Positions 1 to 3,515 of a stretch of 64,000 bases of DNA are shown one piece after another. The notes under the pieces were generated by a model that did no database searches, was not told the origin of the DNA, and saw only the letters and a program-made list of their open reading frames with translations. Location: positions 32,001 through 96,000 of the forward strand of contig CBDCWC010000003.1 of the NCBI GenBank assembly GCA_965223295.1, read 5' to 3'. Origin of the DNA: Nitrospirales bacterium. GTDB lineage: Bacteria; Nitrospirota; Nitrospiria; Nitrospirales; UBA8639. Each line of letters starts with the position of its first letter. Position 1 is the first letter of the stretch. The translations under genes were made by a program, and so were the position numbers.

Positions 1-462
1 GTTCGCCATTTTGTCGAACTCGGGAAAAAAGATGGACAGTGCATCTTGGATCGACAAGTCATGGGCCCAGGCTACTTCCAAGGGCCGGTCATTCTGACAA
101 ACCTTCCGCCTTCCCACCCCGTCGTTCAAGAAGAACTATTTGGACCTGTCATGGTGGTGTTTCAAGTTCAGACAATTCAAGAAGCCTTAACACTCGCCAA
201 CGATTCTCCATTTGCCCTGACAGGAGGGATTTACTCCCGTAGTCCTGCTAACCTTCAAACGGTTCGTGAAACGTTTGATGTGGGAAACCTCTACATCAAT
301 CGACCCATAACTGGATCACTAGTGAGTCGACAACCATTTGGAGGTCATCGACTCTCTGGGATTGGGAAGAAAGCCGGGGGGCACGGATATCTTGAACAAT
401 TCATGGTCGAAAAGATCACCACAGAAAATACTCTCCGCCGAGGTTTTGCTCCAACCTCATAA
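1..462 (+). CDS. putA: C-terminal part of aldehyde dehydrogenase-family protein, most likely P5C dehydrogenase domain of PutA (5' truncated by window)
   Basis: Frame open from base 1; EELFGPV, ALTGGIYSRS, GNLYINRPITG and QPFGGHRLSG motifs typical of P5CDH; end ENTLRRGFAP. Confidence 0.75.
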   Translation, partial: VRHFVELGKKDGQCILDRQVMGPGYFQGPVILTNLPPSHPVVQEELFGPVMVVFQVQTIQEALTLANDSPFALTGGIYSRSPANLQTVRETFDVGNLYINRPITGSLVSRQPFGGHRLSGIGKKAGGHGYLEQFMVEKITTENTLRRGFAPTS

Positions 463-644
463 GACATAATCTATCCGAAAACAACCAGTTTCAGGTTCAC
501 CTTCTCTGTCTCAAAACCTTCATTGTACAAATGAGAACTTTTCAACATGCGACCAGAACTCTCAAAACCTCAATAAAATCCACAACCTAGATACAGGTCA
601 AATGGATACAAAAAAGGGAACACTGTTCTCAAAGATTCGCCTCA

Positions 645-673
645 TTGACATTTTTTCTACAGAGGCATAACAT
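645..673 (+). promoter_or_regulatory. sigma70-type promoter of orphan transcript
   Basis: TTGACA (645-650), 17 nt spacer, TAACAT (668-673). Confidence 0.65.
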
Positions 674-679
674 TCTACA

Positions 680-1150
680 CGGTAGAGGTTTATAGACCTG
701 GGAACGGGGAGATACGACGTACTTTCCCGCCCCAGATTTCAATATGAGGAGGTTGCAATATGAACGACCTCAGTCCACCAAAAAAGTAAGGCCCGTGGCG
801 GGCGCAAGTATGATCTCCTCTACTCTGGAGGACGACTCTAGAAAGGATATCTCATCAACAACACCGATGCTGTAGGCATGTGATAGGTCTGAAGGCCTTA
901 AGATATGTTCAAGTGAGATCCACTTTCTACGGTCAAAGAATTTGTGGGGTACGTCATTGACAAGTCAACACATATTAAAAGGTTCAAGAGGAACCCAACC
1001 ACAATAGTCTACTCTCCAAGGGCCTAGATGCCGACGGCGAAAAGGAAGGGGAGATTTCGCAGCCATCGGGTTACAGACAATTGAATTTCCGGCACATCAT
1101 GTGCCTATTGAACGAGGGCCCTCTTTTCTATGAAAAGAGGGCCCTCGTTT
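680..1150 (+). ncRNA. candidate structured non-coding/dual-function RNA of unknown family
   Basis: Bounded by a consensus promoter and an 18-bp hairpin; no ORF of 60 aa or more in the track; about ten consecutive short stem-loops. Confidence 0.45.
1111..1150 (+). terminator. intrinsic terminator-like hairpin
   Basis: AACGAGGGCCCTCTTTTC-tat-GAAAAGAGGGCCCTCGTT perfect 18-bp stem ending in a short T run. Confidence 0.75.
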
Positions 1151-1514
1151 GTGAACCAGCAAAAAAACGAAAATAATTTCTGTTAAAATCTATTCCTGTG
1201 ATCTCCAGTTCCCTAAGATCTACTCTCCGCAAGTCCCAACTTGCGAGGTTAGGTTTTTACCTTCCTTGAACAAGGCGATGAATTGAGTAATCCTCGCATC
1301 TTCAGGTAACTGACACACAGGATCTGTTGGAATCTTTCGCTCCACAGATTGTACCCTTTTCCTCTATTCGTGCTCTCCAGCCAGAACCTCTGATAAAAAC
1401 TTCCTTTAGGTTTTTTCTTATCCAGTAGACATCCTTTGGCATAGAGAGGCACAAAAGGCCAATTTGAGTCAAATGCAGGTCAATCGGTTTTTGCCATTTT
1501 TTAGGTTCAACCCC

Positions 1515-1541
1515 TAAATTCTGTCTTGTATTTACCGATTG
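1515..1541 (+). promoter_or_regulatory. sigma28 (FliA)-like promoter of motAB
   Basis: TAAA-N15-ACCGATTG versus consensus TAAA-N15-GCCGATAA, upstream of stator genes. Confidence 0.5.
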
Positions 1542-1727
1542 ATAGTAGTTAAGAAGCTGCAGAAGACGAGAAAACTCCGATGCCTCAACAAATGGTGTAT
1601 GACGGAAAGCTCAGAAGTCTCGCTGTTTGAAAGTTCTGACCCAGGACCCTACACGCAGGTGACTAATGTCCCGTTCTTACCCACTCGCTCGAGAGTTTCA
1701 CTTAACTAAGTACTGGGAGTTTTTATC

Positions 1728-2585
1728 ATGCTAGTTATCGTTGGATACATTATCATTATTATTTCTGTATTTGGCGGCTTTGCACTCGCTGGTGGACATA
1801 TCGCCTCACTTTGGCAACCAGTTGAAGTACTCATGATCGCTGGCGGTGCAATCGGAGCATTTGTGGTCGGGAACTCAAACAAAGCCATTAAGGCCACACT
1901 GAAAAACTTGCCCGGCGTGTTTAAAGAAACTCCATATAATAAAGCCATGTACATGCAACTCATGTCATTACTCTACCTGATCTTAAATAAAATCAAAAAA
2001 GAAGGCTTGTTATCAATTGAAGCTGACGTTGACAATCCAAAACAAAGCGACATATTCAAAAAGTTCCCCAAAATTCTTGAAGATCATCATGCGACTGAAT
2101 TTTTGACTGATTATTTAAGACTGATGGTTGGAGGCAACCTCAATTCGATGGAAATTGAGAATTTGATGGATTGTGAATTGGAAACACACCATCAGGAAGG
2201 AGAAGTGCCCATTCATACTCTTTCCAAGCTTGGGGATGGATTGCCAGCATTTGGTATTATTGCTGCCGTTATGGGCGTTGTCCATACGATGGAATCAGTG
2301 CATCTCCCTCCCTCTGAATTAGGCGTGCTGATTGCTGCTGCATTAGTGGGAACCTTTTTAGGTATTCTCCTTGCCTATGGATTTATCAGTCCCCTAGCCG
2401 GCAAGCTTGAACATCGACTCCATGAATCGAGCAAATTATTTGAATGTATAAAAATCACACTGTTAGCAAATCTTAACGGGTACTCTCCCGTGCTGGCTTG
2501 TGAGTTTGGCAGGAAAGCCTTATTTACAAGTGAAAGGCCATCATTTTTGGAATTGGAAAAGCATATAAAGGGAAGTAAAGGCTGA
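1728..2585 (+). CDS. motA: flagellar motor stator protein MotA
   Basis: N-terminal TM pair, GLLSIEADV, LPAFGIIAAVMGVV, AALVGTFLGILLAYGF, EFGRK motifs. Confidence 0.95.
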   Translation: MLVIVGYIIIIISVFGGFALAGGHIASLWQPVEVLMIAGGAIGAFVVGNSNKAIKATLKNLPGVFKETPYNKAMYMQLMSLLYLILNKIKKEGLLSIEADVDNPKQSDIFKKFPKILEDHHATEFLTDYLRLMVGGNLNSMEIENLMDCELETHHQEGEVPIHTLSKLGDGLPAFGIIAAVMGVVHTMESVHLPPSELGVLIAAALVGTFLGILLAYGFISPLAGKLEHRLHESSKLFECIKITLLANLNGYSPVLACEFGRKALFTSERPSFLELEKHIKGSKG

Positions 2586-2627
2586 CAATCATACTCATTA
2601 ATGATATCCCGCTACTGAAGGTAACAT

Positions 2628-3515
2628 ATGGCTGAAAAAGCGTCCCAACAACCTATTGTCGTAAAAAAAGTCAAGAAAGTTGTAAGTGGCGGGCATGGCG
2701 GAGCTTGGAAAATTGCCTACGCTGACTTTGTGACCGCTATGATGGCCTTTTTTCTATTGATGTGGTTATTGGGATCAGTAGATGGGGGGAAACTAGTAGG
2801 AATTGCCGAGTATTTTAAAACCCCATTACAAGTGGCAATGGGAAAGCCTGGGACTGGTGATGCATCAAGTGTTGTAGAAGGTGGAGGAAAAGATCTGACA
2901 CGCGATACGGGTCAAGTGCAAAAAGGCGCGGCACAGAGCCCTATAGACAGTACTGCCCGAGCGGCACGTGCACGCGAAGAGGTTATTCGCCTGAAGCAAT
3001 TAAAAAGCAAAATCGAAAAAGCCATTGAAGTCAATCCGGCATTACGAAAATTTAAAGACCAGCTACTGTTGGATATCACTACAGATGGTCTGCGTATCCA
3101 AATTGTTGATGCACGAAATCGCCCCATGTTTGCAAGTGGACGAGCAGACGTGCAGCCCTATACACGAGCGATACTCCGTGAGATTGGCGAGACTCTCAAT
3201 AATGTTCCCAATAAGATTAGTCTTTCAGGACATACTGATGCCACACCATTCCCTTCTGGGAACAACGGATATAGTAACTGGGAACTGTCTGCAGATCGTG
3301 CAAATGCCTCAAGAAGAGAACTAGTTGCAGGCGGTATGGACACGAACAAAGTGTTACGAGTCGTAGGGTTATCGTCTGCAGTTTTATTTGACAAAAATGA
3401 GCCACATAACCCCATCAATCGTCGTATTTCTATTACAGTGATGAACCAAAAGGCTGAAAACGCAGTGACAAAAGATGTTGGCGGCAACCAACTAACTTTC
3501 AATTCAGGCCTTTAA
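2628..3515 (+). CDS. motB: flagellar motor stator protein MotB
   Basis: HGGAWKIAYADFVTAMMAFF with conserved Asp; OmpA-like PG-binding domain (GHTD, NWELSADRA, NRRI). Confidence 0.95.
   Translation: MAEKASQQPIVVKKVKKVVSGGHGGAWKIAYADFVTAMMAFFLLMWLLGSVDGGKLVGIAEYFKTPLQVAMGKPGTGDASSVVEGGGKDLTRDTGQVQKGAAQSPIDSTARAARAREEVIRLKQLKSKIEKAIEVNPALRKFKDQLLLDITTDGLRIQIVDARNRPMFASGRADVQPYTRAILREIGETLNNVPNKISLSGHTDATPFPSGNNGYSNWELSADRANASRRELVAGGMDTNKVLRVVGLSSAVLFDKNEPHNPINRRISITVMNQKAENAVTKDVGGNQLTFNSGL

Follow-up and report, generated by a model that had tools for sequence, protein, structure and literature searches.

A new family of covarying RNAs with a conserved nine-codon frame in Nitrospirales

The window analyzed here, 64,000 nucleotides (nt) from the genome of a Nitrospirales bacterium (assembly GCA_965223295.1, contig CBDCWC010000003.1; genome G000 below), harbors near its start a gap of 1265 nt without a long gene (463-1727), and the question is what this gap encodes. 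An earlier note, made from the letters alone, had described positions 645-1150 as an orphan transcription unit of consecutive hairpins, and had proposed a small RNA (sRNA), a protein sponge or a dual-function RNA. We found that the unit recurs in four genera with its promoter and terminator, that its fold is backed by compensatory changes in two of them, and that its most conserved element is a frame of nine codons that follows a Shine-Dalgarno (SD) sequence and an ATG (760-789), which the earlier note overlooked. Hence, the observation is confirmed and its interpretation is supported in part: with moderate confidence, we read the unit as a new RNA of the dual-function type, whose fold would depend on the translation of this mini-ORF (open reading frame, ORF).

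Promoter, terminator and distribution of the unit

The near-consensus sigma70 promoter seen by the earlier note is indeed present (Table 1), and the region 400-1800 contains four promoter-like sites, versus 2.0±1.5 in shuffled sequences. The pattern TTGACA-N17-TAnnAT, together with AGAGGCATA, is kept in the alignments of the window's genus (g1) and of g8 and g9, which like g11 are other genera of the same family (f1). As a 9-mer, AGAGGCATA occurs 22 times in the G000 genome, where it is not enriched, and its occurrences are skewed by strand (nine of nine on the - strand of contig C2; ten on the + and three on the - strand of C3).

At the other end, the terminator-like stem previously noted as 18 base pairs (bp) long folds as 19 pairs followed by UUUGUG. 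It escaped a simple terminator scan of the window's + strand because its T run is short, where relatives carry GUGUUUUUU. Nevertheless, a stem of 14-19 bp is present in all copies. In alignment A2 (34 units) it forms helix 14, with 17 pairs counted, 7 of them changed on both sides, and 98.6% pairing, and it is likewise paired as helix 16 in alignment A5 (20 g8 units of ~350 nt each). The predicted transcript is ~470 nt long in the window, and 350-500 nt in relatives. As the earlier note stated, no ORF of at least 60 amino acids (aa) exists on either strand of 645-1150, the longest being 43 aa (+) and 37 aa (-). The conservation of promoter and terminator in all contexts fits, at the sequence level, a self-contained and presumably independently transcribed unit.

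Table 1. Coordinates of the features discussed, in window positions
Feature	Position	Strand	Remark
Sigma70-type promoter	645-673	+	-35 TTGACA (645-650), 17-nt spacer, -10 TAACAT (668-673); 10/12 consensus positions
AGAGGCATA	661-669	+	promoter stretch conserved across genera
Predicted RNA, ~470 nt	680-1152	+	5' end inferred from the -10 box, 3' end from the terminator
P1, 5' hairpin	698-735	+	CCUGGG...CCCAG with inner stem; A2 helix 1, 3/7 pairs changed on both sides, 95% paired
P2	746-774	+	SD paired with codons 3-5 (GAC CUC AG), AUG in the loop
Shine-Dalgarno	746-752	+	GAGGAGG, 7 nt before the ATG
Mini-ORF	760-789	+	ATG AAC GAC CTC AGT CCA CCA AAA AAG TAA, predicted MNDLSPPKK*
Segment X, 5' strand of P3	790-805	+	GGCCCGUGGCGGGCGC; GGCCCGUGGCG..; begins one base after the stop
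Inner hairpins	866-898	+	AUGC..GCAU (~866-880) and AGGUC..GGCCU (885-898); A2 helices 9 and 10
Segment D, 3' strand of P3	1058-1072	+	CGCAGCCAUCGGGUU; followed by a conserved A-rich linker (ACAGA...)
Hairpin before the terminator	1091-1105	+	GGCACA-UCA-UGUGCC; A2 helix 13, 4/8 pairs changed on both sides
Intrinsic terminator	1111-1152	+	19-bp stem (1111-1129 with 1131-1149), then UUUGUG
Aldehyde-dehydrogenase-type gene, 3' end	1-462	+	upstream flank of the gap
motA	1728-2585		downstream flank of the gap
motB	2628-3515		downstream of motA

The designation orphan does not hold. A BLAST search with the gap recovered the unit, with blocks kept at both ends, from 13 of 24 further genus genomes (14 of 41 genomes of relatives when G000 is included), and a second query found it in 21 of 50 genus genomes. 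Covariance models of the 5' module (R1) and of the 3' module (R2) match 22 and 21 of these 50 genomes (species), respectively, R2 lacking G044, whose contig is cut, and 28 of the 50 contain no match to either. Since the two models find the same genomes, the two halves always occur jointly, with one exception, a second copy in G064 (G064:C1:3561092-3561547, locus L031). This copy is truncated at its 5' side: it starts in the middle of the mini-ORF, ~50 nt after the stop of another gene, and lacks promoter, SD and ATG, while its 3' module still scores 149.8 bits; it may be a pseudogene or a version borne by a 3' untranslated region (UTR).

In a sample of 151 genomes of the order, R1 matches 35 of 62 genomes of family f1, in four genera (g1, 7/16; g8, 25/34; g9, 2/3; g11, 1/4; 0/1 in each of five others), and none of 88 outside it (0/62, 0/21 and 0/5 in the other Nitrospirales families f2-f4). 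The exact SD and ORF pattern was found in 19 records among 185,579 species genomes, whose titles name Nitrospirota, Nitrospirae or Nitrospirales, except for one that reads just 'uncultured bacterium'. A metagenome scan anchored solely on the flanks of the ORF gave 59 matches, 21 of which are homologues and 38 unrelated genes, and all 21 homologues carry a frame of 8-9 codons; 13 of them entered the alignment, seven being dropped as 98-100% identical to another row and one being cut short. In Rfam 15, searched with window positions 1-3000 (E up to 10), the best overlaps score 15.9-21.9 bits against gathering scores of 48-100 and all lie on the terminator hairpin, and the best match to a unit in four relatives reaches 19.8 bits against a gathering score of 57, in agreement with the earlier note, which recognized no tmRNA, RNase P, 6S, SRP or riboswitch here. 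Among the papers listed for small and non-coding RNA of Nitrospira and for putA, intergenic regions and transcriptomes, none deals with this RNA. By these searches, the unit represents a new RNA family that is apparently restricted to one family of Nitrospirales.

Covarying fold and a long-range closing helix

The region 678-1150 folds with -163.4 kcal/mol, compared with -131.9±6.3 in shuffles (z = -5.0), and thus better than shuffled controls, a check that the earlier note had proposed. However, the reverse strand gives a z of -4.7, so that energy by itself is no proof of a structure and does not discriminate between the strands. We therefore give the compensatory changes for consensus structures predicted by RNAalifold. 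In alignment A1 (21 genome units, 83 pairs), 24 pairs are changed on both sides versus 7.9±2.2 in shuffles; in A2 the numbers are 43 of 113 versus 17.2±3.2, and in A5, from g8, 15 of 97 versus 8.2±1.8, with 0 of 500 shuffles reaching the observed count each time. Slid controls give 10-14, 21-29 and 4-8 such pairs, respectively, and 38-47% paired cells in A2 where the structure has 92.4%, a comparison that is flattered because the same alignments served both to predict the structures and to count the pairs. Greater weight consequently falls on the shuffles and on the replication in a second genus, and with them the claim of an undescribed structured RNA is borne out: the fold is backed by compensatory changes in two genera, and no Rfam family covers it. 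At 11 of the 113 A2 pairs the commonest pair is G.U or U.G, which would be a C.A mismatch on the opposite strand; in combination with promoter and T tract, this places the RNA on the + strand.

The units share a common order, namely, a 5' hairpin (long in g1, short in g8), P2, the mini-ORF, segment X, a multi-helix core that includes a conserved GUUGC/GCAAC helix, and then segment D, an A-rich linker, a hairpin and the terminator. The motifs GGCAAC and CGGGUYAA..ACAG are common to several genera. The many hairpins of the earlier note are thus present, but the architecture is not a consecutive string: long-range pairing of 790-805 with 1058-1072 closes a domain. Its hairpins at 698-735, 749-771, 885-898 and 1091-1105 are conserved with covariation, and the one at 981-995 is found in the close relatives G064b and G063 and not elsewhere. 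On the other hand, the sequence of 816-832 differs in most relatives, and 1031-1069 uses a strand that in the family pairs with 790-805. Among the inner hairpins, 3 of 6 pairs in helix 9 and 3 of 4 in helix 10 are changed on both sides, and the hairpin before the terminator has a g8 counterpart, GCGCA..UGCGC, at the equivalent position. P2 is paired at 95% in A2 (helix 2, 9 pairs) and at 100% in g8 (A5 helix 3, 6 pairs), and shows little covariation because it shows almost no variation.

The closing helix, P3, joins segments X and D over ~270 nt in the window and encloses the entire core and 3' domain. It is present in the window's minimum-energy fold and in the g1 consensus folds, its 13 pairs being 96% paired in g1 (A2 helix 3), and it is 97% paired in g8. 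Since both strands are nearly invariant, double changes are few: one U-A to C-G exchange in g8 (G098), a G-C to A-U exchange between g1 and g8 (UGG/CCA versus UAG/CUA, as read from the alignments), and a helix rebuilt as CCAGCUGCC/GGCAGUUGG in the g11 genome G155, where it appears in both the minimum-energy and the centroid folds. Alternatively, X can find a partner nearby, in a CGGGC that lies 10-40 nt downstream; for the window this gives GCCCG-UGG-CGGGC (791-803), and in g8 a hairpin of 6 pairs that is 100% paired. Accordingly, the hairpin that the earlier note placed at 791-803 can form, but as one of two alternatives predicted for a conserved segment.

The nine-codon frame and its possible readings

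We compared the mini-ORF in 64 copies (the 34 rows of A2, 29 copies from other genera, and G044). The ATG is present in all of them, preceded by an SD that reads GAGGAGG or GAGGGGG in g1 and AGAGGGG in g8, g9 and g11; the sequence between the two is free, whereas the purine block keeps a distance of ~5-9 nt from the ATG. The predicted peptide is M-[N 61, E 2, T 1]-[D 63, Y 1]-L-[S 59, N 3, G 1, T 1]-P-P-[K 60, N 4]-x, in which Pro-Pro is invariant, D-L-x-P-P is kept in 63 of 64 copies across four genera, and x stands for twelve different residues (AAG in 19/64). A stop follows at codon 10 in 59 copies, one of which stops at codon 9 too, and an in-frame stop occurs within 13 codons in all 64. 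For the conserved codons D, L, P, P and K/N, four of the five third positions vary but only one of the ten first and second positions does (hypergeometric arithmetic, 51/3003 = 0.017), and the synonymous pairs AGT/AGC, CCA/CCG (at both proline codons), AAC/AAT, CTC/CTT and AAA/AAG are seen. This pattern resembles that of a translation start with a short translated frame, and in our judgement the chances that a mini-ORF is translated on a functional RNA are about even.

Codons 7-9 of the window also form a dnaX-type slippery heptamer (A_AAA_AAG, 780-786), 4 nt before a strong helix, at which a -1 shift would open a frame ending at 875 (38 aa in all). We rejected such a frameshift site as a family feature, since the heptamer occurs only in the window and a minority of copies; codon 9 elsewhere is CAG, GCG, TTC or others, which break it.

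The anatomy is that of leader peptides, with invariant Pro-Pro codons beside two conserved, mutually exclusive pairings of the segment after the stop. In the mechanism that we favor, the nine-codon frame (family consensus M-N-D-L-S-P-P-K-x) would be translated, and its translation would act in cis on the RNA. The SD would be half buried in the hairpin with codons 3-5, and GGCCCGUG, one base past the stop, would serve as the 5' strand of the closing helix or else form the short local hairpin. Which helix forms would be decided by a ribosome, either on terminating at the stop or on pausing at the invariant pair of proline codons, and the 3' domain would then report the translation status through its conformation, stability or trans activity. 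A ribosome at the stop would cover X, while one held at Pro-Pro would not. More specifically, but doubtfully, the unit may be a stand-alone sensor of the ribosome, in which a pause via the nascent M-N-D-L-S-P-P-K or the proline codons toggles the partners of X; such a pause might respond to prolyl-tRNA, EF-P activity or a small ligand, and the toggle might switch the trans activity or stability of the 300-400-nt RNA domain. It would then be a leader-peptide switch turned into a free-standing regulatory RNA, without a cistron of its own to control. When a ribosome was simulated on the consensus fold from the SD to 13 nt past the stop, P2 and P3 were lost and no new conserved helix appeared.

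Several observations weigh against the translation-dependent fold, as does the flattered comparison with the slid controls. First, the canonical stop is mutated to TCA or CAA in five g8 copies (loci L189, L190, L194, L195 and L196), which end three codons on, at a TAG in segment X (GGCCCGTAG), giving 12 codons (MNDLSPPKASGP or MNDLSPPKFQGP). Second, the nucleotides of the ORF are far more conserved than ordinary synonymous sites (GAC and the first CCA in 63 of 64 copies each), which implies that constraint at the RNA level acts too, and this constraint, from the SD pairing or a seed, may explain much of the ORF pattern; an antisense frame moreover shares third positions with the ORF, and the bias alone does not pick the strand. 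Third, minimum-energy folds choose the distal partner of X in g1 and g11 and the local partner in g8 and g9, and the two partners, each 97-100% paired, are too invariant to rank. Fourth, no Hfq (PF17209) was found in the G000 genome, rated 100% complete. A BLAST search of the RNA against its own genome found, besides itself, only chance matches of at most 16 nt (E of at least 0.35), and when four conserved segments were run with RNAduplex on 3761 start regions from crude calls, the neighboring genes were not outstanding (ranks 438-2518 for putA and 1665-3159 for motA, by a crude method that says little either way). Finally, expression is weakly evidenced by assembled contigs: one of 312 nt from a metatranscriptomic library covers 705-1021, and one from run X2, whose kind is only guessed, covers 849-1029 and ends in adapter-like letters; these contigs show neither ends, strand nor level, and RNA libraries may contain DNA. 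No contigs from the RNA libraries X1 and X7 or from X2 were found for putA, nor from the RNA library X1 for motAB, uncovered parts proving nothing in both cases.

The first two points lead to a purely non-coding, trans-acting sRNA, in which the SD/AUG stretch would be kept as a hairpin plus a seed or protein site and the frame would be incidental. This would account for a stretch that is near-invariant at the nucleotide level, including most synonymous sites, for the pairing of GAC CUC with the SD-like purines, for the five copies without a stop at codon 10, and for the truncated G064 copy, which keeps a 3' domain of 149.8 bits without promoter, SD or ATG. It accounts poorly for an ATG and a stop within 13 codons in 64 of 64 copies, for a spacer that is free in sequence at a length of ~5-9 nt, for variation at 4/5 third against 1/10 first or second positions of the conserved codons, and for the fixed amino acids of codons 3, 4, 6 and 7 beside a free codon 9. 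We consider this a possible but not a likely explanation. Less likely still, the unit may be a small mRNA whose effector is the nonapeptide MNDLSPPKx, the 3' domain being merely a stabilizing or regulatory UTR. The strong promoter and SD and the retention of D-L-x-P-P in 63 of 64 copies of four genera would fit such an effector, as would the Pro-Pro bond, which would resist many peptidases; however, the 300-400-nt 3' domain is itself conserved with covarying helices, its motifs GGCAAC and CGGGUYAA..ACAG recur between genera, and the smallest peptides of dual-function RNAs in the published accounts considered are 14-15 aa long.

The antisense frame just mentioned could also point to a protein gene, either on that strand or decayed. 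In the first 13 units examined this frame (..ARHGPxFFGGLRSF..) is open over the ORF region. However, it measures 30-247 aa with wandering ends, is frameshifted by a 1-nt indel in the spacer, and is interrupted by stops immediately next to its conserved part in G101, G068 and G122b; no Pfam match with an E of at most 0.1 was found for the five longest translations, the units do not resemble the gene behind putA in species lacking the RNA, and both the T tract and the G.U pairs agree with the + strand. Thus, a protein gene, including the decayed one that the earlier note had named as a refuting finding, is scarcely credible.

Genomic setting, related systems and significance

The gene cut by the window start (C3:29478-32462) encodes a PutA-like fusion of proline dehydrogenase and P5C dehydrogenase of 995 aa; the open frame extends to ~1000 aa, and among NCBIfam models that of L-glutamate gamma-semialdehyde dehydrogenase is the best. 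Of the 21 g1 genome copies of the RNA with sufficient upstream DNA, 18 lie beside putA, compared with only 6 of 13 metagenome units; the copies in G004, G012 and G043 do not. Identity to the window's PutA is 79-97% in RNA-carrying species with the copy beside putA, 71-74% in G004 and G043, where the RNA is elsewhere, and 68-78% in non-carriers. In the 13 inspected genus genomes without the RNA, a convergent gene (~276-309 aa) starts directly after putA, leaving no gap to house it. Other neighbors are found in g8 and g9, presumably, from their recognized N-terminal motifs, a divergent Zn-alcohol-dehydrogenase-like gene and often dapF. Since the neighbors differ between lineages and genera, the RNA unit seems autonomous, and for the same reason we dropped the adjacency to putA as evidence of a link to proline catabolism.

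In the window, ~580 nt without a long ORF separate the terminator from motA. Window positions 1167-1365 and 1679-1725 match the motA upstream region of G012 (C15:2144777.., locus L004) with 72-79% identity, and a broader match covers 1167-1727, from which it appears that the block of putA and RNA was joined to a native motAB upstream region by rearrangement.

This setting bears on whether the unit is a cis-acting leader or attenuator of downstream genes, its terminator being a regulated attenuator. The leader-peptide-like anatomy would suit such a role, and in most g1 genomes a same-strand TPR lipoprotein gene lies ~115 nt past the terminator. The downstream gene varies, however: it is motAB, ~580 nt away, in the window, the TPR gene in most of g1, dapF or others in g8, and yet other genes in G004, G043 and the M074 clade. 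Furthermore, all copies have the terminator stem of 14-19 bp, no conserved antiterminator was found, and the ORF lies ~320 nt upstream of the terminator (250-350 nt across genera). A cis-acting role is therefore very improbable.

Neither is the unit readily assigned to a known class of stand-alone RNAs. 6S RNA (RF00013) was not found in the G000 genome, which is rated 100% complete, and the anatomy of the RNA (SD, ORF, 470 nt) is unlike 6S. It resembles tmRNA as a structured RNA of 350-400 nt with a short internal frame, but has no tRNA-like domain and no Rfam match, and its frame has an SD and an ATG, which that of tmRNA lacks; moreover, a separate tmRNA (RF00023, 187 bits) lies at C3:1021200-1021550. 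With CsrB, RsmY and RsmZ it shares the character of a multi-hairpin, terminated and strongly promoted RNA, and CsrA is encoded in G000 (C2:1139902-1140057), so a CsrA/RsmA-type sponge was considered. In its favor is one RsmY match at the 3' end of a g8 copy, which at 19.8 bits (gathering score 57, E = 0.13) is sub-threshold and the sole one. However, GGA is not enriched (7.9 per unit versus 11.0 expected in g1; 7.0 versus 7.9 in g8), GGA loops or sites are not conserved between genera, and most SDs are GAGGGGG, without GGA. We regard a sponge as highly unlikely, and among the three roles proposed in the earlier note, the dual-function RNA fits best.

The nearest analogues would be dual-function sRNAs and leader-peptide switches. 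The peptides of the former have 15-43 aa. SgrS/SgrT, Spot 42/SpfP, AzuCR and VcdRP are reported to be stand-alone terminated transcripts that combine a structured RNA with a short translated frame, with peptides of 15, 28 and 29 aa among them; the RNA in the window would likewise be a small, terminated and structured transcript with a short, presumably translated frame, but this frame has 9 codons, the RNA spans 350-500 nt, and the stop of the ORF abuts the closing helix. The trp attenuator rnTrpL/peTrpL (~140 nt) is the 5' leader of a trp operon with the classical 1:2/2:3/3:4 hairpins; it codes for a leader peptide of 14 aa, the translation of which is governed by amino-acid supply, and is reported to be released as an sRNA acting in trans (PMC12612679). 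The window RNA also carries a tiny ORF on a terminated RNA; unlike rnTrpL, it has no operon behind it, its helix partner is 215-320 nt away, and its putative regulatory codons are Pro-Pro. Finally, mgtP and mgtL in the mgtCBR and mgtA leaders of Salmonella contain consecutive proline codons, and the speed of their translation (prolyl-tRNA, EF-P) is reported to select alternative stem-loops (PMC3641672, PMC5299641, PMC6460261). Consecutive proline codons in a short ORF beside alternative helices recur in the window RNA, but mgtP and mgtL belong to 5' leaders by which elongation into the coding region behind them is controlled, whereas our unit ends at its own terminator in every context. The RNA thus differs from all these analogues in its shorter frame, in having no downstream cistron, and in a stop that abuts a long-range closing helix.

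To our knowledge, almost no regulatory RNAs have been described in Nitrospirales. The unit adds a new and well-supported family of RNAs in four genera, with helices that covary independently in two of them, a conserved promoter and terminator, and an anatomy that can be tested. If the frame is not translated, this would still be a new large structured sRNA, of moderate interest. If it is translated, its product would be shorter than the 14-15 aa peptides of the dual-function RNAs considered here, and if the proposed mechanism is true, a leader-peptide-like switch on a free-standing RNA would link translation status to RNA regulation in an ecologically important group.

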